Positions 2,958 to 28,093 of a stretch of DNA of 32,280 nucleotides are shown piece by piece. The notes beneath the pieces are model-generated. The model saw nothing but the letters and a program-made list of their open reading frames with translations. It was not told the DNA's origin and did no database searches. Both the position numbers and the translations under genes were made by a program. Positions within the stretch are counted from its first letter, which is position 1; every line of letters starts with the position of its first letter. Source of the DNA: an uncultured Bacteroidales bacterium (lineage in GTDB: Bacteria > Planctomycetota > Planctomycetia > Gemmatales > HRBIN36); contig CAYPJB010000004.1 of the NCBI GenBank assembly GCA_964410845.1, positions 1-32,280 on the forward strand, in the 5' to 3' direction.

Positions 2958-3398
2958 ATGAAGTCGCGACATTCTCTTGCACATCGACGTCATACACGGC
3001 GCGGCATCCTCGCTCTCGAACTCCTCCTCATTCTTCCTATTCTGTTGCTGCTCATCCTGGCGATGGTCCAGTTCAGTTTGACCATCCATGCTCGTCAGCA
3101 ACTGGTGGCAGCTAGCCGGGAAGGCTGTCGCATTGCAGCACTGGGTGGTGACCTGGGAGAAGTGGAACGTACGGTTCGACGAACACTGGGTAATGGCCGA
3201 CTGGCTGATGCGGACATTGAACTCACTGACGAATCAGGGAAATCCATCGAAGCGGGGCAAGCGGTGCCCACTGGGGAAGCGGTGGCGGTCTGGCTTCGTT
3301 TACCAACGGTACACGCAGTGCCGGATCTACTGCGATTCATGGGATACAGCATCAAGGGAGACGAGATTATTGCTCGTACCTTGATGAGGCGAGAATAA
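2958..3398 (+). CDS. TadE-like pilus assembly / pseudopilin-like protein
   Basis: 146 aa. The N-terminus RRGILALELLLILPILLLLILAMVQFSLTIHARQQLVAASREG fits the TadE-like N-terminal hydrophobic domain. A GGGAGGG RBS lies 8 nt upstream of the ATG. Confidence 0.75.
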   Translation: MKSRHSLAHRRHTRRGILALELLLILPILLLLILAMVQFSLTIHARQQLVAASREGCRIAALGGDLGEVERTVRRTLGNGRLADADIELTDESGKSIEAGQAVPTGEAVAVWLRLPTVHAVPDLLRFMGYSIKGDEIIARTLMRRE

Positions 3399-3438
3399 CT
3401 ACGCTCAGGATGAGCAAGCTATAGGCAAGGAGCCAACA

Positions 3439-4608
3439 ATGCGTGCAAGCACCATGTTTGCGTTAATCGTCGCGGTGCTCGTCGGCCTGGGAGCTGCGGT
3501 GGCAGCCAAGGCGACAGGCGTGTTCAATCGTGCGGAACCGAAGAAGGAGCCGCCACCCATCATGGTGCTGGCAGCGGCAAGCAATATCTTCGAAGGCAAT
3601 ATGATTCAGACTGCCGATGTCCGAGTTCGTCCTGCATCACTGCAGGAAGTGGAACAGTTGCGTCGGGGTGAGTTGTTGCCTGCAATGCCACAGGCTGTTG
3701 TCAAGCGATTCGCGAAGATGAGCATTCCCGCTGATGCAGCCATCCGGAAGGACTACCTCGAAGACCTCATTGCTCCGGGGGAACTTCGAACACGAGTTGC
3801 TCCTGGAATGCGGGCAGTCAATCTGGCTATTCCCAAACATCATGCCGCAGGTGGCCTGATCAACGTCGGTGACTGGGTGGACATTCAACTGATGGCTGCC
3901 ATCGAAGCTCCGGCAGTGCCGCTTCCCGGGGGGGCAGCTGCAGCTGGTGGCACTACGGCCCAGGCGGCCATCATCACACGCGCTGCCCGTGTGATTGCCA
4001 AGCGGAACAGCCTCTGGCCTGTGCAGACACCACTGGGCCCAGACTGCCCAGTGAACTTTACGCTGGAAACGAATCCTTACCGAGCGGCACTGATCGAGTT
4101 CGCCAAGGATAAGGGAACACTGGTACTGCTTCCGGTAGGTGATACCGACAAGCGAGTGCTGGAAGCCCGCCGAAGCGATTTGATGAATCAGTCAACCAAT
4201 CCAAATCCGGTCATGAATGTGTCTTACAACATGGCTGAGAGCAATGAGTACCGCGAAGAAGACAAGCGTGTTGGCAACTTCCTCAATGGCAACTACGTGA
4301 TCAGTGAAGGCGACCTGGTTCGCATCTTTCAACTGAAGTATGTGCCTCCTACTCCTCCATCCCCAGTCGCCAAGATTGAGAAAGTGGTTGGCATCAACAC
4401 CGCTGGCTATTCAAAAGGTGGCATCGGGGCAAGCAATAACTCAATAGAAGAAGGTAACGCCGGAGCCATTGCCCAGCGTAGTGGGCCTTCTGTGGGTAGC
4501 TATACCGTCGGTGGAAATCAATCGAGCCCTTTCCGATTTCGTCCTCCTGAAGCACCTGCTTCGTGCAACACGTGCCAGACGGGTCGAGGGAAGTGCGGAC
4601 AGAAGTAG
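3439..4608 (+). CDS. cpaB: Flp pilus assembly protein CpaB/RcpC with a long C-terminal extension
   Basis: 389 aa with an N-terminal TM helix and a SAF-like segment (VLAAASNIFEGNMIQTADVRVRP). An RcpC-like region (MRAVNLAIPKHHAAGGLINVGDWVDI) follows. An AAGGAG RBS is present. The last 150 aa or so are low-complexity and end in CNTCQTGRGKCGQK. Confidence 0.8.
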   Translation: MRASTMFALIVAVLVGLGAAVAAKATGVFNRAEPKKEPPPIMVLAAASNIFEGNMIQTADVRVRPASLQEVEQLRRGELLPAMPQAVVKRFAKMSIPADAAIRKDYLEDLIAPGELRTRVAPGMRAVNLAIPKHHAAGGLINVGDWVDIQLMAAIEAPAVPLPGGAAAAGGTTAQAAIITRAARVIAKRNSLWPVQTPLGPDCPVNFTLETNPYRAALIEFAKDKGTLVLLPVGDTDKRVLEARRSDLMNQSTNPNPVMNVSYNMAESNEYREEDKRVGNFLNGNYVISEGDLVRIFQLKYVPPTPPSPVAKIEKVVGINTAGYSKGGIGASNNSIEEGNAGAIAQRSGPSVGSYTVGGNQSSPFRFRPPEAPASCNTCQTGRGKCGQK

Positions 4609-4635
4609 TAGCTATTTGCTACCGAAAGATTCAAC

Positions 4636-5835
4636 ATGATTTACAGCAAGAACAAACCGAAACGCCGTGGAGCCATGTGGCCGTTGCTCTTGGCTTGCCT
4701 GGCGCTCATGCTGGCTGGGCTTGCTCTTGCTGTTGATTCGGCACTACTCTGGCAGGCACGACAGGAACTGCAGGTGGCTGCCGACGCCAGTGCCCTGGGG
4801 GCAGCTCTTGAGCTGGCCGACGACCAGTTACTGCTTCGTCGCCCGGGTGTAATGCATCATGTCCTGCAGCGATCCAGCCGCATGGCCCAGGCAATTGCGT
4901 ATCAGCATCATGTACTAGGTGTGCCGCAGAAACTGGTCATTGAAGATCCGGATCAGAACGATGTGGTAGCAGGTTTTCATGTAGCCCATCAAATGGGAAT
5001 TCAGCCAGCCAGCGATGCAGATCTGGATAGTCCGTTTCTCAATGCCATCGAAGTGACAGCCCGGCGAACTCGTGAGCGGGGCACGCCCGTCGGTCTCTTT
5101 TTCACCCGTCTCTTTCGCCTCGAATCGGCGAATGTTGCTGCCCATGCTATCGCTGCACTGGATCGTCAGGTGATCGGTTTTCGACCTGTTGGGCAACTCA
5201 GCGTGCCTCTCATGCCTGTAGCTATATTCACGGATCCCACTGGGATCGATGAGCATTCCTGGGATGCCCAGATTGAGAAACCCCTGAGCCAGGGTGGCGG
5301 CTACGATGAGTTTGCCTACCAGAAGGCCAGTCGGCGCTGGGTACACACCAGTGAAGGCACCAAGGGCGATGGGCTGCCGGAGTTCTTGCTCAAACTGCCA
5401 CTCGGCACCAATCTCGAAGAGGCAAACGCCACCTTGCTGCAGATCGGCAAGGCGAATGCGTTCTTGCGTCAGGTCGAAACGGGCATTCTGTCTGCTGACC
5501 TGGAAGAGTTTCAGGGACAGTTCAGTCTCGGTTGGGACGGACAACTTCCTGTGGAGGAGTTGCCATTGCCAACGTCGCGCACTCTGGAACAACTCGTCGC
5601 CAGACTGAACAAGCTTCAGGAAGCAGGCGAGGCACGTATCTGGCCACTCTACCAGCGTTTTGAATCCGGTGTGATGGTACAGGGCTTTGTTGCAGCGCGA
5701 ATCGCTCAGGTTGAACAAACAGAAGCTTATCTGCAAGTTATCTTGCAGCCCACAATACTCACGACAGGCTCTGCTATCACTGATGGTACAGCGGCAGAAA
5801 ACGCCTTTGTCGGCAAAATCAAACTCGTTCGTTGA
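4636..5835 (+). CDS. TadG-like (TadE/G N-terminal domain) pilus assembly protein
   Basis: 399 aa. The N-terminus RRGAMWPLLLACLALMLAGLALAVDSALLWQARQELQVAADASALGAA matches the 'putative Flp pilus-assembly TadG-like N-terminal' pattern. No vWA motif is evident. Its operon position lies between cpaB and cpaF. Confidence 0.6.
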   Translation: MIYSKNKPKRRGAMWPLLLACLALMLAGLALAVDSALLWQARQELQVAADASALGAALELADDQLLLRRPGVMHHVLQRSSRMAQAIAYQHHVLGVPQKLVIEDPDQNDVVAGFHVAHQMGIQPASDADLDSPFLNAIEVTARRTRERGTPVGLFFTRLFRLESANVAAHAIAALDRQVIGFRPVGQLSVPLMPVAIFTDPTGIDEHSWDAQIEKPLSQGGGYDEFAYQKASRRWVHTSEGTKGDGLPEFLLKLPLGTNLEEANATLLQIGKANAFLRQVETGILSADLEEFQGQFSLGWDGQLPVEELPLPTSRTLEQLVARLNKLQEAGEARIWPLYQRFESGVMVQGFVAARIAQVEQTEAYLQVILQPTILTTGSAITDGTAAENAFVGKIKLVR

Positions 5836-6037
5836 ACGAGAGGAAACACCAGCCTCGGCTGGTCTGGAATCTTATGCCAGTGATTCATTCAACGGGTGTG
5901 ACGGCGGACACCAGTCACATTTCGGAATCCTGGTGTGAGCGCTCCCGGAAATGGACGGATTGCCAGCGAGGGAAGTTATGATCCCCGCCCTCGCTGGTGA
6001 TCCTTCGCTCCGGGAGTCTGAAACAAGGAAGTCTGCC

Positions 6038-7390
6038 ATGTCACAAGAACTAGCTGTTCGCCAGCAGCGACTGAAAGCAGACATCCACCGGCAGATGGTG
6101 GAGATGCTCGATGTCAGCAAGCTGGGCCACTGGCCTGAAGATCGTCTCCGCCGAGAACTGCGTGGTCTGGCTTCGAGATTGCTCGCCCAGGCGCCGGAGA
6201 TGCTCAGCCAGGTAGAGCGCGAACGGCTGGCTGATGAAGTCATTGACGAAGCTTTTGGCCTGGGGCCACTCGAAGGATTGCTCTCCGATCCAACCATCAC
6301 CGATATTCTCGTGAACGGGCCGAAGTCGGTGTATGTCGAGCGGCGTGGAGTTCTGGAGCAGACGCCCATTGTCTTTGCTGATGAACATCACCTGTTGCAG
6401 ATCATCCAGCGTATTGCAGCTAAAGTCGGCCGGCGTGTGGATGAACAGTCGCCGATGGTCGATGCCCGCTTGCCGGATGGCTCGCGTGTGAATGCGGTGA
6501 TCCCGCCGCTCGCGCTCGAAGGGCCGATGCTTTCTATCAGACGGTTCGGCGTGCGACTCGGAGTAGAAGACCTTCTCGCCGGTGGCTCGATCCCTGCTGA
6601 AGCGATGGCTTTCCTGCAGGCTGCTGTCGAAGCACGAATCAGCGTACTCGTCAGTGGCGGAGCTGGCTCTGGCAAGACGACATTACTCAACGCCTTGTCG
6701 CGTTCGATTCCTGATGATGAACGGCTCGTCAGCATTGAAGATGCAGCTGAACTCTGCTTGCAGCAGCGTCACGTGGTTCGTCTGGAAACACGTCCTCCGA
6801 ATATGGAAGGAGCGGGTGAAGTGAAACTCCGCGATCTGGTCAAGAATTCATTACGTATGCGACCGGATCGGATCATCATCGGCGAAGTGCGTGGAGCGGA
6901 AGCGCTTGACATGCTTCAGGCCATGAACACAGGGCACGAAGGATCACTGACGACGATCCATGCTAATGATGCCCGTGATGCACTGGCCCGTCTCGAAATG
7001 ATGGTAATGATGGCAGGGTTCGAGTTGCCTATCTCGGTGATTCGCCAGTACATCCGCTCAGCCATCACAGTCATCGTGCATCTCTCCCGGCTCAAGGGGG
7101 GCAAACGCAAGATGCTCAGACTTTGCGAAGTAGTAGGCTTGCGTGATGGTCGTTACCTGGTTCGTGATCTGTTCCGTTATCAGCAACAAGGCGTGCGTGA
7201 CGGCAAAGCGTTTGGCAGTTACTTTGCCACCGGCAAACGACCCAAGTGCTTACAGCGATTGCACGCAGCAGGTATGCATCTGCCTGATGAAATGTTCAGC
7301 AAACGCATCCTGGCCACCAGAAGCGAGTTCGATCAGCCTCAGTGGAAGAATCGACTGCATGTCGAGCAAGCCATGAAGGGAGCAGTATGA
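6038..7390 (+). CDS. cpaF: CpaF/TadA family pilus assembly (secretion) ATPase
   Basis: Walker A is GGAGSGKTT. The protein has an Asp box/Walker B region ([12 protein letters not shown]), a His box ([14 protein letters not shown]) and the ITDILVNGP motif. The ORF is open from 5951. I prefer ATG 6038 (AAGGAAG RBS, 450 aa, [13 protein letters not shown]...), but 5951 or 5978 are possible. Confidence 0.9.
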
Positions 7391-8325
7391 GCCAGGAACA
7401 AACCCTCATCGCTGTCCTCAGTGGCGTGGTTACTGCATTAGTCATGGCAGGCATACTGGGCGGCCGAATGATGATAGCCCGTCGCCGTGCTGCACTGGCC
7501 AGTAGTCTGGGTGCTGTGGAGGCAGAAGAGACGCTGGCTGCTGCTCTGCCGTTGCCTGAAGCGAAGAATACATCGGAAAGGGTAGATCGACAGTTCGATC
7601 AACTCGTTACCGGCACAGGAATTGATATTACTTCCGAACAGATGATTGGCGTCATTCTGCTGTGCGGCGTCGGGAGTTGTGCAGGGTTCTACCTCTGGCG
7701 CGACGAGCTTTGGCTGGCACTCCTTGGCTTTGTCATTGGGTTGGCGGTTCCCATTGCCTACTTGATGGTGATGGCGGGGCAGCGTCGCAGGCAGATTCAT
7801 CAGCAGATGCCAGATGCGATTTATCTCCTGTCGCGGTCCCTTCGTGCTGGACTAGGCATGGAGCAAGGCTTTCACCTGGTTGCCAGTGAAAGTCCTCAAC
7901 CGCTCGGCGATGAATTGCGTCGTGTTTCAGAACAGGTTAAGCTTGGGCTCACCGTGCCCACAGCATTGCAAACTGCTGCACAGCGAGTGTCCGTTCTCGA
8001 TTTCAGCGTCTTCGCTGCGATTATTTCGATCCATCGCACCACGGGTGGTCAGTTGCCCATGCTGTTGGATCGCCTGGCATCTGGCATTCGTGACCGTGTG
8101 CAATATCAGGGACAGTTCAGAGCTGCGACAGCGATGGGTCGCATCAGTGCCATTGCCCTGGGCGCGGCAGTACCACTAATCTTCCTCTGGTATGTGCTCT
8201 TTCAACCAGAAACGGTGCAGATCTTCATCAACACACCAGGTGGTATGGCCATGCTTGCCACTGCGTTCAGCCTCGAAGCAGTGGGAATCTTCTGGCTCTA
8301 TCGCTTGCTGCGAACTGATAGCTAA
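7387..8325 (+). CDS. tadB: TadB-like type II secretion system F-family inner-membrane protein
   Basis: The ATG at 7387 overlaps the cpaF stop (ATGA). The protein has TM helices plus a GspF-like cytoplasmic domain (QMPDAIYLLSRSLRAGLGMEQGFHLVASE...). Confidence 0.8.
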   Translation: MSQEQTLIAVLSGVVTALVMAGILGGRMMIARRRAALASSLGAVEAEETLAAALPLPEAKNTSERVDRQFDQLVTGTGIDITSEQMIGVILLCGVGSCAGFYLWRDELWLALLGFVIGLAVPIAYLMVMAGQRRRQIHQQMPDAIYLLSRSLRAGLGMEQGFHLVASESPQPLGDELRRVSEQVKLGLTVPTALQTAAQRVSVLDFSVFAAIISIHRTTGGQLPMLLDRLASGIRDRVQYQGQFRAATAMGRISAIALGAAVPLIFLWYVLFQPETVQIFINTPGGMAMLATAFSLEAVGIFWLYRLLRTDS

Positions 8326-8338
8326 CGGGGACATAACG

Positions 8339-9382
8339 ATGTATTCGGAACTCCTGGAATGGGGCATCCCCGTACTGATCTTCATCGTGGTGGCGAGCGG
8401 CTTTTACTCACTGATCGCCCGGCAGATGGAAGATCGGCGACGGGATCGCCTGCTGAAGCAAACCGCCATTGACGATGGCCTGTCAAAATCCGATCTGTTG
8501 CTGGGCGATTACACACCCGCACTGGCTGCTCAGTTGCCAGTGGCATCGTTCGATCAGAGTGACATTGCCAGGGAACTGAAGACAGCAGGTTACTATGGCA
8601 GCACCGCTATTCTTGAATATGCTGCGGTACGTACCGTCCTCGTGTTGGCGCCATTGATTGCCACCGGCCTGATCGCCCTGATGGTAGAAAAAGAGCAGAT
8701 GAACCGTGTGCTCGTCATAGGGTTCATCGCGACGGGGTTAGGTTACAGTTTGCCTCGCATCTACCTGCATCTCAAAGGGAAGGAACGCATACGTCAACTG
8801 GAGAATGCCTTGCCGGTTACGGTTGACATGCTCACGCTTTGTATCAGCGGTGGTCAGACGCTGCAGGCTTCGATGAAACGTGTGGCGAAGGAGATTGCTC
8901 CAGCCCATCCGTTGATGGCGAGTGAACTGACCATTACCCAGCAACATTCCGAACTGAGCAATCTGCCACATGCACTGAAACAACTGGCAGATCGTGTTCC
9001 TGTCGGCGAGATGCGGAACCTGGCCCTCATCCTTGCACAGGCAGAACGATTAGGCAGCGAGACGGGTACCGCGCTGCTCGAGTATTCCACCAATTTGCGA
9101 ACGGGACTGAAGCAGCGAGCCGACGGTCGAGCCAACCAGGCGATGTTCTGGATGCTGTTTCCCACTATTCTTTGCCTGTGGATACCAGCTGCCATCTTGC
9201 TGGTGGGGCCAGCTATCCTCGAATTTCGCACTCAACGGCAGAGCATTACCAAGGAATGGAAAGAAGCACGGCAGAAGCTTAAGGAATCCAAGCAGCAGGT
9301 GAATCCTGCGTCAAAGGAAGCTCCTGCCGAATCATCAGGCGAGCTAGTGCAAGCCGGTGCCAATGTACCAGCGCGTGAGTAA
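8339..9382 (+). CDS. tadC: TadC-like type II secretion system F-family inner-membrane protein
   Basis: The ATG at 8339 lies 13 nt after the tadB stop and has a GGGGA RBS. A GspF-like domain is present (LENALPVTVDMLTLCISGGQTLQASMKRVAKE...), followed by C-terminal TM helices. Confidence 0.8.
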   Translation: MYSELLEWGIPVLIFIVVASGFYSLIARQMEDRRRDRLLKQTAIDDGLSKSDLLLGDYTPALAAQLPVASFDQSDIARELKTAGYYGSTAILEYAAVRTVLVLAPLIATGLIALMVEKEQMNRVLVIGFIATGLGYSLPRIYLHLKGKERIRQLENALPVTVDMLTLCISGGQTLQASMKRVAKEIAPAHPLMASELTITQQHSELSNLPHALKQLADRVPVGEMRNLALILAQAERLGSETGTALLEYSTNLRTGLKQRADGRANQAMFWMLFPTILCLWIPAAILLVGPAILEFRTQRQSITKEWKEARQKLKESKQQVNPASKEAPAESSGELVQAGANVPARE

Positions 9383-24729: not shown

Positions 24730-26133
24730 TTATGGCAACACTTTCAACTGCTTCGGATCAGTGACTTTGATCTGTGGTGCATCCTTGTAAATTTCCACTT
24801 TGCCGGTCACTTGTATTTTCTTGCCTTTGAAATGCTCTTTCGGTTCAGTGATTTCTTTCGACTTGCTCAGATAACCCTTTTCCAGAACAACGGTGAAATT
24901 CTTACTGTCACGAAAGTCGGCAAGTGAATTAAGGAAGACCCGATTGCCTGATCCACCGGTTGCCTGCACAGTGAACTCGACTGTCACTTCTTCGCCAACC
25001 TTTTTCGCTGCTTCGATAGTGTTGATGGTGCCAAGGCTCGTTTTCTCGGGTTCAGCGGTGACGTTGCCAGCGGAGGATGGAACTACACGGCCGGGATGAA
25101 TGGTGCTCAGCAGCACTTTTTGTTGAATGGTCACCTCGCCTGCTTCGTCGCGAATCTGCAGACGAATGACCGGATCGCTGGCATACCAGTCGATGGTGAT
25201 GAATCCGAAGTTGTTCCCCCAGTTCATGGTGGCCACCCGATGCTGATTTGGTTCGAAAGCACGGAATCGCTTGTTCGCTTCGGTTAAGCCGCTGGAAGTG
25301 ACATCGTAGATCGGATAGCTGACAGCCTTGGGCATCATGGACAGTTCGGCCAGGTGTCTGTCTCCGCTGAGGAAGATGATTCCTTTTGCCTGGGTGCTTT
25401 CGATTAGTTGAAACAATTTCTCCCGTTCCTTCGGGTGATTCATCCACTTTTCCCAACCATGATCCTGGGCAATTACCTGTATGCTGGAGCCGACGATGCG
25501 AATATCGGCTGGCTGTTTAAGCTGGTCTTCGAGCCACTTCCACTGAGCTTCGCCCAGGATGGTGCCTGTGCTGCTTTCATCTGGAATGTAGGGGCCCTCA
25601 CCCGGCAACGCTTTAGGTTCTTTTTTCTTCAGCGGCGTGCGGAAGGTGCGGGTATCGAGCATGATGATCTGCACCCGTTGGCCAGGCGGGCCAAATATCT
25701 CAACCGAGTAGATGCCTTCCTGTTCACGACGAGGTGAGTTTTCCGGCACATCGAAGAAATCAAGGAAGAGCTTTTGCGACTCCTTCTTCGGCCCAAATTC
25801 ATACCCTGCATCATTCTTGCCGTAATCATGGTCATCCCAGGTGGCAAGAATCTTGCTGGTCTGCTTGAGTAAACGATAGCCAGGGTTAGCGCCAAGCTGT
25901 TCATACTTTTTCTTCATCAATTCCATGTTGGTGGTATCAGCATAGATGTTGTCGCCGAGGAAGAGAAATACATCAGGCTTCAGGGCCGCTAGTGATTCCC
26001 AGATGGGTTGAGGCTTGGATTGATGAGCACAACTACCGAAAGCGATTCGGCGTAACGGTGCACTTGTAGGATCGGATCCATGCAGAACGGTGGAGAGGCA
26101 ACAGAGTGTTATCAGGGAGAGCAGGATTCGCAT
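24730..26133 (-). CDS. PhoD-like alkaline phosphatase/phosphodiesterase with a C-terminal beta-barrel (OB-like) module
   Basis: The ATG at 26133 gives the signal peptide MRILLSLITLCCLSTVLHG. The metallophosphatase motifs are RIAFGSCAHQ, FLGDNIYAD, WDDHDYG and FLSGDRHLAE. The upstream in-frame extension to 26286 is unlikely because it would overlap gpx. Confidence 0.85.
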   Translation of the reverse strand: MRILLSLITLCCLSTVLHGSDPTSAPLRRIAFGSCAHQSKPQPIWESLAALKPDVFLFLGDNIYADTTNMELMKKKYEQLGANPGYRLLKQTSKILATWDDHDYGKNDAGYEFGPKKESQKLFLDFFDVPENSPRREQEGIYSVEIFGPPGQRVQIIMLDTRTFRTPLKKKEPKALPGEGPYIPDESSTGTILGEAQWKWLEDQLKQPADIRIVGSSIQVIAQDHGWEKWMNHPKEREKLFQLIESTQAKGIIFLSGDRHLAELSMMPKAVSYPIYDVTSSGLTEANKRFRAFEPNQHRVATMNWGNNFGFITIDWYASDPVIRLQIRDEAGEVTIQQKVLLSTIHPGRVVPSSAGNVTAEPEKTSLGTINTIEAAKKVGEEVTVEFTVQATGGSGNRVFLNSLADFRDSKNFTVVLEKGYLSKSKEITEPKEHFKGKKIQVTGKVEIYKDAPQIKVTDPKQLKVLP

Positions 26134-26229
26134 CTTCTGAATCTCGGGCGGGGTTGAACTCGTAAGATAGATAGTTCTAGTGTAGGGATCATAGTGATCC
26201 CGATTATGAACCTCTGATGGAGAATCGTG

Positions 26230-26778
26230 ATGCGTCATCTGGTAGCAAGCAGCCTGGTTCTGGCCATCCTTGGCCTCAGCATTCAAGCGGGAGAGAAACC
26301 TGTGTCAGACGTACTCAATCACACCGTGAAGAACATCGAAGGCAAAGACGTGAACCTCGCCGACTATCAAGGCAAGGTCGTGCTGGTAGTTAATGTTGCC
26401 AGCAAGTGCGGCTACACCAAGCAGTACACCAATCTGCAAGCCGTTTACGAAAAGTACAAGGACAAGGGTCTGGTTGTGCTGGGCTTCCCCTGTAATCAGT
26501 TCGGAGGTCAGGAACCAGGCAGCGAAGAAGAGATTCAAAAGTTCTGCAGCAGCAAGTATAGTGTCACCTTCCCGCTGTTCTCCAAAGTGGATGTCAATGG
26601 CGGGGGCACGTCAGATTTCTACAAGGCACTCAAGGCCAGCAAGCCAGGCGACATCAAATGGAACTTTGAGAAGTTCCTCATTAATAAAAAGGGAGAAGTG
26701 GTCAACCGCTTTGGCTCAGCCGCCAAGCCTGATGCAGGTGAGTTGCTGGCAGCAATTGAAGCAGAGCTGAGCAAATAG
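26230..26778 (+). CDS. gpx: Glutathione peroxidase (Cys-type), with signal peptide
   Basis: GKVVLVVNVASKCGYTKQY...LGFPCNQFGGQEPG...WNFEKFLI are the canonical GPx motifs. The N-terminus MRHLVASSLVLAILGLSIQAG looks like a signal peptide. Confidence 0.9.
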   Translation: MRHLVASSLVLAILGLSIQAGEKPVSDVLNHTVKNIEGKDVNLADYQGKVVLVVNVASKCGYTKQYTNLQAVYEKYKDKGLVVLGFPCNQFGGQEPGSEEEIQKFCSSKYSVTFPLFSKVDVNGGGTSDFYKALKASKPGDIKWNFEKFLINKKGEVVNRFGSAAKPDAGELLAAIEAELSK

Positions 26779-26815
26779 TTCACTAATCGATAGTGACATA
26801 GCATGAGACGATAAC

Positions 26816-26843
26816 AGCCTTTGGTGAGCGATCACCAAAGGCT
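26816..26843 (+). terminator. Hairpin downstream of gpx
   Basis: AGCCTTTGGTGA gcga TCACCAAAGGCT forms a 12-bp perfect stem followed by TTTGTC. It lies 38 nt after the gpx stop. Confidence 0.55.
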
Positions 26844-26897
26844 TTGTCATGTAGAGTAGCTGCAGCGAAGTGAGATTGTCGGCATGCAACTTGTTAG

Positions 26898-26963
26898 TGT
26901 CAGTAGTATGTCAATAAGTGGTGTATAACAGGTCATCAAAGTGTTCCCATCTTGTCTATATTG
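26898..26963 (+). repeat. Left array of phased 11-bp TGTC-type units
   Basis: The units are TGTCAGTAGTA / TGTCAATAAGT / GGTGTATAACA / GGTCATCAAAG / TGTTCCCATCT / TGTCTATATTG. A KGT core recurs every 11 bp. The first 35 bp are the reverse complement (29/35) of 27120-27154. Confidence 0.7.
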
Positions 26964-27119
26964 ACGTGTTTGTGCACAACTCTAGCGATTGTAGAAGACA
27001 AGTCGAATTTTCCGATTTTGTGAAATTGGTAAAAAGTTCCGATAATTCTTCTTGAAATGCCCATGGAGAGTAGTTACATTACCCCTCGTCGATGCGGGGT
27101 TGGCGGCAGGAGACGCCCC

Positions 27120-27198
27120 CCTGTTATCGACAACTTATTGACATCTTATTGACAGCCTGCCGACACCTTGAACACAGGTTGTTGACAAGTAGCAGACA
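27120..27198 (-). repeat. Right array of seven phased 11-bp units (TGTC on the - strand, GACA on the + strand)
   Basis: On the + strand the units are tgttatcGACA / acttatTGACA / tcttatTGACA / gcctgccGACA / ccttgaaCACA / ggttgtTGACA / agtagcaGACA. The spacing is exactly 11 nt, with unit ends at 27132, 27143, 27154, 27165, 27176, 27187 and 27198. Confidence 0.8.
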
Positions 27199-27256
27199 CA
27201 AGAGCTTCCCAGGATGGGACTTGCTGGGCACGGACGCCCCCCCTATTCTTGTGATC

Positions 27257-28093
27257 ATGCACTATGCCATTTGCAATGAGACCTTTGTGGGCTGGGATCA
27301 CCAGCGTATCTGTACATTTATCGCCTCGCTTGGGTATACTGGGCTTGAAATTGCCCCCTTTACCTTAGGGCCAGCACCGACGCTGTTACCCATGGAAACG
27401 CGGCAACAGTACCGTCAGCAGGCACAGGATGCCGGTATTTCGATTGTCGGCCTGCATTGGCTTCTGGCCAAAACCACTGGTTTACACCTTACCCATCCTG
27501 ATCCTTCTATTCGTATCCGGACTGCTCAGTATCTGGTTGAACTCGGAGCACTTTGCCGAGATCTGGGTGGTTCATTGATGGTGCTGGGGTCCCCACTTCA
27601 GCGGAACCGTTTGCCAGAACTATCAACAGTGCAGGCATTTGAGTTTGCCCTGGATACGCTGAAACAGGCCATGCCCCGACTCGGTGAACTTGGCATCCGA
27701 CTCTGTATTGAACCCCTTGGCACCGCGGAAACCAACTTCATCAATACCTGTGCCGAGGCCAACGAGCTTATCCAGGCTGTCGATCATCCCCTCTGCGTGC
27801 TGCATCTCGACGTCAAGGCGATGGCAGCGGAGTGCAACACCAACGATGATGGTGAAGCGATCGCCCGGTTGATTGGCCGGGAGATTGCTCACACTGGCCA
27901 CTTTCATGCGAATGACCCGAATCGCCGTGGCCCTGGTTTTGGCCCCATGCCGTTCGGCCCGATTATGAAAGCACTCCAGGAGAGCAGATATGCAGGTTGG
28001 GTTTCGGTAGAAGTCTTTGATTACTCGCCTGATCCCGAAACCATTGCCAGAGATTCGATAGCCAACCTGAAACTGGCTGCCAACCACCATTGA
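27257..28093 (+). CDS. Sugar phosphate isomerase/epimerase (xylose isomerase-like TIM barrel)
   Basis: MHYAICNETFVGWD...GYTGLEIAPF...GISIVGLHWLL...LCIEPL...HFHANDPN is typical of the AP-endonuclease-2/xylose-isomerase-like fold. The ORF-track start at 27092 would translate the repeat array and is rejected. Confidence 0.8.
   Translation: MHYAICNETFVGWDHQRICTFIASLGYTGLEIAPFTLGPAPTLLPMETRQQYRQQAQDAGISIVGLHWLLAKTTGLHLTHPDPSIRIRTAQYLVELGALCRDLGGSLMVLGSPLQRNRLPELSTVQAFEFALDTLKQAMPRLGELGIRLCIEPLGTAETNFINTCAEANELIQAVDHPLCVLHLDVKAMAAECNTNDDGEAIARLIGREIAHTGHFHANDPNRRGPGFGPMPFGPIMKALQESRYAGWVSVEVFDYSPDPETIARDSIANLKLAANHH

Follow-up and report, generated by a model that had tools for sequence, protein, structure and literature searches.

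The gap upstream of the gene at 27257-28093 carries two facing arrays of an 11-bp unit, one on either side of a conserved sigma70-type promoter. Judging by sequence comparison across related genomes, this segment is the cis-regulatory region of that gene and not a separate element. Its units and geometry most resemble DnaA-box arrays, and hence point to a regulatory site rather than a mobile element. We tentatively propose that DnaA-type oligomer arrays regulate the promoter of this gene, a reading that we hold with a little less than even confidence. Throughout, "the window" is the whole 32,280-nt stretch of DNA that was analysed, and "the gap" is the 413 bp between the upstream terminator-type hairpin and the start codon. 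The features discussed are as follows.

26816-26843, plus strand: terminator-type hairpin of the upstream glutathione-peroxidase gene, with a perfect 12-bp stem and a 4-nt loop; left edge of the regulatory gap
26881-26886, plus strand: GGCATG box, ~12 bp outside the first left-array unit; GGCA(T/C)G stands at the same offset in 7/7 aligned lineages
26898-26963, plus strand: left array of six KGT-phased 11-bp units in the TGTC... reading, about -189 to -124 from the inferred start site
26987-27051, no strand assigned: conserved AT-rich central block (GC 0.37) between the left array and the promoter
27052-27080, plus strand: sigma70-type promoter of the epimerase-like gene from a promoter scan, with -35 TTGAAA (27052-27057), a 17-bp spacer and -10 TACATT (27075-27080)
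27088-27131, plus strand: leader hairpin 1 at the mRNA 5' end, with apical loop GCAGGAGA and the innermost right-array unit (UUAUCGAC) as its 3' arm
27122-27198, minus strand: right array of seven 11-bp units in the TGTC... reading, about +36 to +112, in the transcribed leader
27207-27252, plus strand: 3' leader block, near-invariant down to the 71% relatives
27257-28093, plus strand: proposed regulated gene, encoding a 278-aa xylose-isomerase-like TIM-barrel protein (AP_endonuc_2, Pfam PF01261, E = 1.4e-36)

Two facing arrays of an 11-bp unit

An earlier, sequence-only reading of this DNA had described an inverted match between about six rightward and seven leftward units, and both the match and the counts held up. 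The inverted arms (26898-26932 and 27120-27154, 35 nt each) are complementary at 29 of 35 positions (83%) across a 187-nt spacer. When the 413-bp gap was shuffled 300 times with its dinucleotide content preserved, no inverted match of 35 nt was better than 23/35. The pair is also the only one in the 32-kb window to reach 27/35 or more within 300 bp, and the segment as a whole is single-copy there.

Each unit consists of a 9-mer plus 2 bp. One or two near-perfect 9-mers (TGTCAATAA, which reads TTATTGACA on the opposite strand) are succeeded by increasingly weak units that retain just the TGT(C) core, on one and the same helical face. Counted by their KGT phase, the left-array units number six; the sole perfect 9-mer is TGTCAATAA in unit 2 (26909-26917), unit 1 is TGTCAGTAG in the window and TGTCAATAA in most relatives, and units 3-6 are increasingly weak. 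On the minus strand, the seven units of the right array read, from 27198 to 27122, TGTCTGCTACT, TGTCAACAACC, TGTGTTCAAGG, TGTCGGCAGGC, TGTCAATAAGA, TGTCAATAAGT and TGTCGATAACA, all starting with TGT; the longest TGT-phased run in 500 shuffles of the window was four units. The innermost three are strong, appearing on the plus strand as TTATCGACA (27124), TTATTGACA (27135) and again TTATTGACA (27146). Tandem Repeats Finder formally gives only 2.8 copies (27124-27154), the outer right-array units having diverged. The two arrays lie ~160-190 bp apart, with the promoter in between.

The gap had been called AT-richer throughout, which is true of its left and central parts (GC 0.37-0.44 over ~26775-27149) and not from ~27075 onward (~0.53). 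It had also been called free of open reading frames of 60 aa or more; in fact, a mechanical 333-aa frame runs from an ATG at 27092 through the right array and into the epimerase-like gene. This extension is unconserved and its frame differs in relatives, so the right-array region is non-coding. A coding role for two central frames of 42 and 45 aa was rejected, as their start codon is lost in relatives. The bounding hairpin, proposed as a terminator, does have a perfect stem, but its T-tail is weak, and it went uncalled by a terminator scan for that reason; relatives carry hairpins of other sequence followed by T-runs at the same position. A sigma54 reading of the GGCATG box was ruled out by eye (no GC at -12), and we make no claim of intrinsic curvature at the gap centre, where the A/T tracts are not at helical-repeat spacing. 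Searches for tRNA and tmRNA found none.

Conservation of the gap and its promoter

Upstream of the AP_endonuc_2 gene, ~10 Gemmatales relatives (71-99% protein identity) have the ~400-bp gap conserved and in synteny. It stays with this gene even where the upstream neighbour differs, and is therefore not a MITE or a transposon end. The best solved relatives of the encoded protein are D-psicose and D-tagatose 3-epimerases (~1e-13), and it falls far below every NCBIfam cut-off; it is a distant relative of the ketose 3-epimerases. Among orthologues at ~45-60% identity, neither the arrays nor the leader are present.

Throughout the six left-array units, 6-7 of 7 lineages retain G and T at positions 2-3, whereas the rest of the unit drifts. 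Even in the 71% relative L194, whose upstream gene differs, the array can still be recognised. The right array varies in length, with seven units in the window, six in L003, three in L073 and L106, two to three in L005, L006, L009, L072 and L196, and none in L010 and L194. The left array is ancestral and the right array lineage-dependent. Since the right array is absent from the 71% lineages L010 and L194, looping between the arrays cannot be the ancestral mechanism. The sequence-only reading had taken the symmetric multi-site layout for a nucleoprotein-complex site, and the conservation of phased units amid drifting bases, around a conserved promoter, speaks for that interpretation. Of the candidates it listed, a looped or oligomeric regulator complex fits best.

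Transcription from the promoter between the arrays is predicted to start at ~27087. Across nine relatives, the -35 element is TTGAAA, TTGAAC, TTGATT or TTGCAA and the -10 element TACATT, TAAATT, TAGATT or TAATCT; the spacer is always 17 bp long, with variable sequence. Depending on the lineage, 142, 154 or 164 bp (13.5, 14.7 and 15.6 helical turns) separate the left array from the -35 element, so that length shifts in ~11-bp steps and helical phase is roughly kept. The central block contains near-invariant stretches (CGATTGTA..AAGTCGAATTTAACGATTTTGT..GGTAA.AAGTTCC..AATTCTTCTTGAA; alignments A1 and A3) and may be an UP-element or hold sites for further factors. Two other promoter candidates were discarded: none of the TTGACA hexamers of the right array has a -10 element at 16-18 bp, as read from the sequence and from the promoter scan, and the single scan match for a divergent minus-strand promoter at the left array (CTGACA-17-GACAAT) is unconserved in relatives.

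Structure of the leader RNA

Leader hairpin 1 is present both in the minimum-free-energy fold (z = -3.3) and in the RNAalifold consensus. Compensatory changes occur among its 15 pairs, for example GTTGGT/ATCAAC in L005. Because its 3' arm is also the innermost right-array unit, part of the conservation of that unit may be at the RNA level. The outer four right-array units, found only in the window and L003, are able to fold as a hairpin of their own (~27145-27190).

The 3' leader block contains a second hairpin (UCCCA-GGA-UGGGA, 27207-27219), whose closing pair covaries between UA, AU and CG, and a possible third (GGGC-ACGGAC-GCCC, 27226-27239). It ends in a C-rich, pyrimidine-rich tract right before the start codon. 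In L003 and L073 it stands in another frame with respect to the ATG, and hence the block is non-coding. Rfam gave no match in the window at gathering thresholds; at E <=10 over 26780-27300, there was one chance match, on the terminator hairpin, and no other.

Resemblance to DnaA boxes

The sequence-only reading knew of no described element with this unit. Our literature search on the 9-mers together with DnaA or oriC likewise found nothing relevant, but the strong units TTATTGACA and TTATCGACA match the DnaA box TTATnCACA at 8 of 9 positions, with G for C at position 6, and the geometry is of the oriC type (PMC6070618, PMC10380432). Inside the gap are all four of the perfect TTATnGACA 9-mers that the 32-kb window contains, against an expectation of 0.57. 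A perfect canonical TTATnCACA box is found nowhere in the window, nor is one conserved in the gap.

We scored the window with an experimentally derived B. subtilis DnaA matrix (PMC4447404, Table S3). On this matrix, 7 of the 30 top 9-mers in the window (at least 8.5 bits) fall in the 413-bp gap (binomial P ~9e-8), and the strong units score 9.0-9.8 bits, ranking 17-21 of 64,544 9-mers. Among the relatives' gaps, those of L003, L005 and L106 are likewise significantly enriched; in L006, L072 and L196 the enrichment is weak, and L194 has none. All of the strong units have G at box position 6, that is, TGTC where DnaA expects TGTG, and this base occurs in just 3 of 150 B. subtilis DnaA-bound boxes (PMC4447404). 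In L106, an additional phased pair of the canonical type (TGTGAACAGTC TGTGAACATTC) stands just upstream of the left array.

The arrangement of the sites also agrees with that of a DnaA cluster. Same-orientation sites separated by 2-bp gaps, giving the 11-bp period, hold through all six left and seven right units, and local site density in the gap is far over the window background.

Phased units in other genomes

We scanned 185,579 species genomes for two units in phase and obtained at least 120 tiles. Among those listed, this phased variant lies directly beside dnaA or dnaN in at least five (L094, L100, L120, L129 and L154), where we roughly estimate a chance expectation of a few tenths. These adjacent arrays, among the matches listed, come from Poribacteria, Clostridia, Mycoplasma and one planctomycete. 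In the latter, Mariniblastus (L100), the interval from dnaA to dnaN holds TGTCAATAA units that share an 11-bp phase with a perfect TGTGGATAA box. Among the matches listed, there is a 3.5-fold enrichment of canonical boxes at distances of up to 250 bp from phased arrays. However, TTATTGACA includes the -35 consensus TTGACA, and the pair overlaps a promoter -35 element in the Gemmataceae L096 and L142, so some of the scan matches are promoters and not initiator sites.

A proposed mechanism

What the sequences show directly is the arrays and their conservation, the architecture of the promoter, the structure of the leader and, in other genomes, an association of the motif with dnaA/dnaN regions. 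That a protein binds, which protein this is, in which direction it regulates and whether the DNA loops are our inferences. In the mechanism we propose, a protein would nucleate on the strong 9-mers and spread head-to-tail over the weak ones. The upstream oligomer would modulate transcription initiation; the downstream oligomer could act as a roadblock for RNA polymerase, contact the upstream oligomer, or both. Such contact would loop out ~200-225 bp carrying the promoter, and expression would track the concentration or activity state of the binder. The most likely binder, as suggested by motif resemblance and by the context of the motif in other genomes, would be DnaA, probably in its ATP form, acting via a non-canonical box, TTAT(T/C)GACA. 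This would make the locus a cluster of DnaA boxes away from the origin that couples the gene to the replication-initiator cycle and possibly also titrates DnaA. We know of no connection between an epimerase-like enzyme and DnaA.

A more far-reaching version of this proposal is that the arrays are a bona fide Gemmatales DnaA-control locus with the non-canonical TTAT(T/C)GACA box, either a datA/DARS-like titrating or recycling site or even an origin, and that the box with G at position 6 is a widespread, overlooked class of DnaA site. We consider this improbable. If it were true, origin finders searching for TTATCCACA would miss such sites. The Gemmatales lineage divides by budding and without FtsZ, and no characterised origin is known for it.

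Experiments have hardly touched gene regulation and replication control in Planctomycetota, and the locus offers a compact handle on them: ~330 bp with a defined promoter, two phased arrays built on a clear 9-mer and natural variants with 0, 2-3, 6 or 7 downstream units. Should DnaA bind here, it would be a transcription factor in Planctomycetota, and a defined non-canonical box would improve origin prediction in several phyla. Should another protein bind, the locus would reveal a new oligomerising regulator and its operator code.

Alternative explanations

The same operator arrays could instead be bound by a dedicated transcription factor, most plausibly an OmpR/PhoB-family response regulator, or by some other oligomerising regulator of Planctomycetota. 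We regard this as unlikely, although it is the most serious of the alternatives. A winged-helix protein would here bind head-to-tail on 11-bp direct repeats, contacting TGTCA in the major groove and ATAA in the minor groove, as in Pho boxes. The window unit TGTCAATAAGn resembles the E. coli Pho-box unit, CTGTCATAAAn, and the 11-bp period is common to both. Runs such as TGTCAATAAGA TGTCAATAAGT TGTCGATAACA also supply the two or more 11-bp direct repeats, with TGTCA core and A/T-rich tail, of the E. coli consensus. The TGTC of every strong unit, in place of DnaA's TGTG, and the rarity of G at position 6 in bound B. subtilis boxes also favour a regulator of this kind. Furthermore, two genes upstream there is a PhoD-like phosphatase gene whose synteny is conserved, and in L083 an OmpR-family regulator gene follows a two-unit array at a distance of ~250 bp.

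Several observations argue against such a regulator. The upstream region of the neighbouring phoD gene has no TGTCA units, and the arrays, unlike a Pho box, occupy -189 to -124 and +36 to +112 of a promoter that keeps its own -35 element, TTGAAA. Neither the window nor any lineage examined has a regulator gene linked to the locus. A divergent 208-aa gene in L194 was considered and rejected as a linked regulator; its product is a membrane protein without a DNA-binding domain. An OmpR-family gene is present in three of the at least 120 tiles listed and adjacent in one, against five beside dnaA or dnaN. The extra phased pair in L106 is TGTGAACA, not TGTCA, and our search found no literature on Pho boxes in Planctomycetota.

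It is very unlikely, in our view, that the locus is the Gemmatales oriC, or a datA/DARS-like replication-control locus, with facing DnaA oligomers around an AT-rich unwinding region. E. coli oriC does have a matching layout of opposed phased arrays and an AT-rich centre, conservation of the intergenic region is unusually high, and planctomycete origins are uncharacterised, with nothing relevant found in the literature. As a weak further point, among the matches listed the locus is the only tile on the 5.76-Mb contig JAXMBC010000001.1 of Gemmatales STL-PLA26, where it lies at ~2.520 Mb, and on the 2.37-Mb contig of 5N134. However, GC skew does not change sign (+0.027 over the 27 kb to the left and +0.022 over the 5 kb to the right), cumulative skew rises throughout the 32 kb, and the relatives have no consistent skew switch. 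An origin of replication is unlikely for this reason. There is also no dnaA, dnaN or other replication gene within the 32 kb or the relatives' flanks, and the left-hand genes, being mostly on the plus strand, would be head-on to a leftward fork. The AT-rich centre, with a GC of 0.37, holds the conserved sigma70 promoter, and no DnaA-trio repeats were seen in it by reading the sequence; the right array lies within a structured 5' UTR. Finally, the segment moves with the epimerase gene through rearrangements, and its boxes decay in the 71% lineage.

We give similarly little credence to the idea that the right-hand repeats matter as RNA only. They would then be a variable, largely unstructured linker with UUGACA motifs, joining conserved leader hairpins, and their likeness to the left array a relic of inverted duplication and of replication slippage by 11 bp at a time, with no common binder. 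In keeping with this, all of the right array is within the predicted 5' UTR, the covarying hairpin takes one of its arms from the innermost unit, the number of units ranges from 0 to 7, the lineage-specific outer four units fold as their own hairpin, and just 2.8 true copies are recognised by Tandem Repeats Finder. Yet the TGT phase holds over seven units despite their divergence, and one 9-mer serves as the strong unit in both arrays, in different lineages. The left array is upstream of the promoter and not transcribed with the gene, yet it has the same phased conservation in all lineages, and reading the sequence revealed no conserved minus-strand promoter for it.

The last alternative, a miniature non-autonomous mobile element with a Tn7- or Mu-type transposase acting at multi-site inverted ends, had been raised by the sequence-only reading from the inverted subterminal repeats and the outermost bases (5'-TGT...ACA-3'), and is effectively refuted by synteny, the single copy in the window and gradual divergence, with 0 to 7 units in the right array, a slowly diverging left array and no empty site among the relatives: the segment always occupies the orthologous site upstream of the same gene, holds that gene's own promoter and leader, has no match among plasmid and phage records, no transposase among the window ORFs scanned and, as already remarked in that reading, no target-site duplication at its ends.

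Comparison with known systems

With DnaA-type arrays as the preferred reading, the closest parallel is E. coli oriC. Its left (R1-R5M-tau2-I1-I2) and right (C3-C2-I3-C1-R4) arrays, like those described here, consist of 9-mers 2 bp apart with an 11-bp period, and its low-affinity 9-mers fill cooperatively from the strong sites (PMC6070618). In both cases, strong sites are followed by weak ones and the two arrays face each other in opposite orientation, as do the two DnaA oligomers of oriC (PMC6070618, PMC10380432); by analogy, filling may be cooperative here too. Unlike E. coli oriC, the locus has no canonical high-affinity TTATCCACA box, carries a promoter between arrays ~160-190 bp apart, one of them transcribed, and is tied to a metabolic gene, with no skew switch or replication genes. 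The E. coli 9-mer TTCCTGACA next to R4, which we take to be the C1 site, also has G at position 6.

DnaA-box clusters are also known outside oriC. In B. subtilis, these intergenic multi-box clusters lie by ordinary genes, as the present arrays do, and regulate the adjacent gene and/or titrate DnaA (PMC3245932, PMC2533591). At E. coli promoters, DnaA prefers pairs of boxes 2-3 bp apart, such double boxes being needed for binding, and DnaA bound in a transcribed region can block elongating polymerase (PMC11317965); we liken the right array to this arrangement. The known clusters (B. subtilis clusters, E. coli double boxes, datA and DARS) have canonical or near-canonical boxes with C at position 6, whereas the locus has the G variant and belongs to an uncultured planctomycete. 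We found no description, for any of them, of strict phasing over six to seven units or of paired inverted arrays at one promoter.

Two further systems share the 11-bp period. Pho boxes (bound by PhoB), ArcA sites and those of other OmpR-family proteins are 11-bp direct repeats with a TGTCA core and an A/T tract, variable in repeat number and bound cooperatively head-to-tail. Pho boxes replace the -35 element, whereas the present arrays stand far upstream and downstream of an intact one, with no linked regulator gene. In parC of plasmid R1, two clusters of 11-bp iterons flank a core promoter; ParR coats both, and the site doubles as an operator. A centromere or iteron function, which had also been among the earlier suggestions, does not agree with the surroundings of the locus, where there are no partition or replication genes and the neighbours are a peroxidase gene and the epimerase-like gene. 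The parC iterons are all in direct orientation, 39 bp apart and beside plasmid partition genes, whereas the arrays described here are inverted, ~160-190 bp apart, chromosomal and next to a metabolic gene.

Two facing arrays around a conserved promoter

The 413-bp intergenic region 26844-27256 (hereafter the gap) carries two phased arrays of 11-bp units, drawn from one 9-mer family and inverted around a conserved promoter. The features of the region are as follows.

24730-26286, minus strand: PhoD-like phosphatase gene, divergent from the glutathione peroxidase gene
26227-26778, plus strand: secreted glutathione peroxidase gene, upstream of the gap
26816-26843: terminator-type hairpin of the peroxidase gene, with other hairpins in its place in relatives
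26898-26963, plus strand: left array, six phased units
26987-27051: conserved AT-rich block between left array and promoter
27052-27080: sigma70-type promoter, TTGAAA-17-TACATT
27088-27131: leader hairpin 1, apical loop GCAGGAGA
27122-27198, minus strand: right array, in the transcribed leader (about +36 to +112) between hairpins 1 and 2
27207-27219: leader hairpin 2, UCCCA-GGA-UGGGA
within 27226-27252: possible leader hairpin 3, GGGC-ACGGAC-GCCC
27257-28093: epimerase-like gene, xylose-isomerase-like TIM-barrel protein (PF01261)

The inverted match described in the sequence-only reading is borne out. A repeat finder returned 35-nt arms (26898-26932 and 27120-27154), 83% complementary and 187 nt apart. 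Chance had been raised as an explanation, but 300 dinucleotide-preserving shuffles of the gap gave at most 23/35 against the real 29/35, and the whole 32-kb window holds no second inverted 35-mer pair of at least 27/35 within 300 bp. The right array, read from 27198 on the minus strand, has seven units in a row that start with TGT (at most four in 500 window shuffles), and on the plus strand the left array keeps a KGT phase through all six units; Tandem Repeats Finder reported only 2.8 copies (27124-27154). Two other descriptions fared less well: the gap is AT-richer in its left and central part but not in the remainder, and, although it was said to lack ORFs of at least 60 aa, a mechanical 333-aa ORF begins at 27092, in a frame not conserved in relatives.

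Across seven lineages, G-T occupies unit positions 2-3 in 6-7 of the seven sequences for all six left-array units, with C mostly next. All seven lineages have TGTCAATAA as unit 2 and most have it as unit 1, while later units keep little beyond the core; in L194, a relative at 71% identity, the array has diverged, yet is recognisable. The promoter hexamers persist in nine lineages with a spacer of exactly 17 bp and variable sequence; the probable transcription start of the epimerase-like gene lies near 27087. From left array to -35 the distance is 142, 154 or 164 bp by lineage (13.5, 14.7 or 15.6 helical turns), changing in steps of about 11 bp with helical phase roughly kept. The earlier proposal of a nucleoprotein-complex site thus stands in part: the phased core is under selection, with unit-sized length changes, and the arrays surround a conserved promoter.

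Conservation of the locus

The comparison covered orthologous loci with protein identities of 99, 85, 78, 77, 76, 74, 73 and 71%. In every locus retrieved the epimerase-like gene follows a gap of about 400-470 bp, and alignments of relatives show more conservation than expected for spacer DNA. In most relatives the phosphatase and peroxidase genes keep synteny with the epimerase-like gene; the gap is kept where the upstream neighbour is instead an lptE-like plus a bamD-like gene (L106, Gemmatales STL-PLA26) or encodes a 208-aa membrane protein (L194). The epimerase-like protein is distant kin of ketose 3-epimerases, far under every NCBIfam cut-off, with its nearest homologues in Gemmatales and Gemmataceae MAGs. 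No tRNA genes, Rfam families, replication genes or transposase were found in the window. The segment occurs once in the window, is syntenic, changes gradually and matches no plasmid or phage record; the mobile element considered in the sequence-only reading is therefore ruled out.

A structured leader containing the right array

In a nine-sequence alignment of the leader, 94.9% of cells pair, six pairs are doubly changed and 0/500 shuffles attain such figures, which is moderate evidence given that the sequences are few and related. Two hairpins show covariation, a third is possible, and every apical loop contains GGA (GCAGGAGA, GGA, ACGGAC); the motif GACGCCCCCC occurs twice. The leader blocks are also present in L003, L005, L006, L009, L010, L072, L073, L106, L194 and L196. 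The 3' block is near-invariant down to 71% protein identity and non-coding, since lineages differ in the frame it has with respect to the ATG. Neither a Shine-Dalgarno sequence nor an Rfam match was found in the leader, which looks like a translational switch or a landing site for a CsrA-like protein.

The innermost right-array unit forms the 3' arm of hairpin 1. Unit number is seven in the window, six in L003, three in L073 and L106, two to three in L005, L006, L009, L072 and L196, and zero in L010 and L194; the left array is therefore ancestral and the right array a later addition that grew in the lineage of the window. Only the window and L003 have the four outer right-array units, which are self-complementary (UUGACAGCCUG / CAGGUUGUUGAC) and would make a separate leader-RNA hairpin at 27145-27190. 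A palindromic insertion may be the source of this growth.

Candidate binding proteins

Two known kinds of site suit a 9-mer repeated every 11 bp: DnaA boxes and the direct repeats bound by the OmpR/PhoB family. The best candidate binder is DnaA reading a box variant with G at position 6 (G6), TTAT(T/C)GACA. The strong units TTATTGACA and TTATCGACA match TTATnCACA at 8/9 positions. A scan of 185,579 genomes, one per species, for TGTCRATAAnnTGTCRATAA matched at least 120 tiles, and in five of the 120 listed the array directly adjoins dnaA or dnaN (Poribacteria L094, Mariniblastus L100, unclassified bacterium L120, Eubacterium L129 and Mycoplasma L154); a rough estimate of chance is a few tenths of a tile. 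In the planctomycete Mariniblastus the units lie between dnaA and dnaN and share their 11-bp phase with a perfect TGTGGATAA box, and among the matches listed canonical boxes within 250 bp of the arrays show 3.5-fold enrichment. When 9-mers are ranked by a frequency matrix for B. subtilis DnaA (PMC4447404, Table S3), seven of the window's best 30 lie inside the gap (P about 9e-8); L003, L005 and L106 show comparable enrichment, three lineages show less, and L194 shows none. Only STL-PLA26 (L106) has an extra phased pair, TGTGAACAGTC TGTGAACATTC, on the reverse strand about 70 bp outside the left array and nearer the canonical type.

The geometry also matches published DnaA behaviour. Low-affinity 9-mers 2 bp apart fill cooperatively from strong sites (PMC6070618), and left and right DnaA oligomers face each other at oriC (PMC10380432). 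At E. coli promoters DnaA needs box pairs 2-3 bp apart and can block elongating polymerase (PMC11317965), and B. subtilis box clusters outside oriC regulate neighbouring genes (PMC3245932).

Counting against DnaA, G at position 6 occurs in only 3/150 DnaA-bound B. subtilis boxes (PMC4447404), and TTATTGACA contains the -35 hexamer TTGACA. The gap holds no conserved canonical box. In two Gemmataceae MAGs (L096:2731-2775, L142:3540-3585) a TTAT(C/T)GACAggTTATCGACA pair upstream of a TPR/HEAT-repeat gene overlaps the promoter -35 and is followed by TATGAT at 17-18 bp; the motif can therefore double as a -35 element or overlap one, and genome-wide searches that use it need to allow for this. The main rival is a dedicated regulator binding the arrays instead of DnaA.

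Reading the arrays as Pho boxes, direct repeats of the OmpR/PhoB family, suits the unit sequence but not the positions, since the arrays do not replace the -35. The short region upstream of the neighbouring phoD (about 26134-26229, between the phosphatase and peroxidase genes) has no TGTCA units. OmpR-family genes occur in 3/120 tiles listed, adjacent in one only. An origin of replication is unlikely, since GC skew stays above zero to the left (+0.027 over 26.8 kb) and to the right (+0.022 over 5 kb), cumulative skew climbs throughout the window, relatives show no consistent switch and no replication genes lie nearby; moreover, a promoter sits in the centre, one array lies within the 5' UTR, and the segment stays with the epimerase gene through rearrangements. 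The STL-PLA26 orthologue lies at about 2.52 Mb in a 5.76-Mb contig.

In the proposed mechanism a protein, with DnaA as the favoured candidate, would nucleate on strong 9-mers and oligomerise along weaker ones. The upstream oligomer would modulate initiation; the downstream one, where present, could block elongation and/or contact the upstream oligomer, looping out about 200-225 bp. The leader hairpins would form a separate, probably post-transcriptional layer. Operator arrays and DnaA-box clusters at promoters are already known; we found no literature description of this box variant, of phasing held strictly over six to seven units or of such sites in this phylum, nor of an inverted pair around a promoter with one array transcribed.

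Related arrays in other genomes

The G6 arrays beside dnaA/dnaN (L094:3934-4250, L100:736-777, L120:2845-3141, L129:5480-5646, L154:4216-4331) belong to five genomes unrelated to each other, and in L120, L129 and L154 they provide the sole good boxes there. Eubacterium DnaA (L129) has a divergent recognition-helix region, KTHGNVIYG, compared with QNHTTIIHA (L094) and RDHSTIMHA (L100); the E. coli counterpart is RDHTTVLHA. The G6 box may be an overlooked DnaA-box class.

Two Bacteroidales MAGs (L089:3628-4208, L153:6737-7061) carry clusters of 6-12 phased 11-bp units (TGTAGATAA + TGTCAATAA + TGTCAACAA), in both orientations in L089. Both adjoin nadA; they may be replication origins or conserved nucleoprotein sites of some other kind. 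Elsewhere in the window, 2958-9382 holds a Tad/Flp-type pilus cluster (TadE-like, RcpC/CpaB, TadG-like, T2SSE ATPase and two T2SSF). A Pseudomonas MAG (L095:5664-5716) has four perfect tandem copies of TGTCGATAAAG and a fifth degenerate copy, adjoining a 189-aa ORF without a Pfam match.
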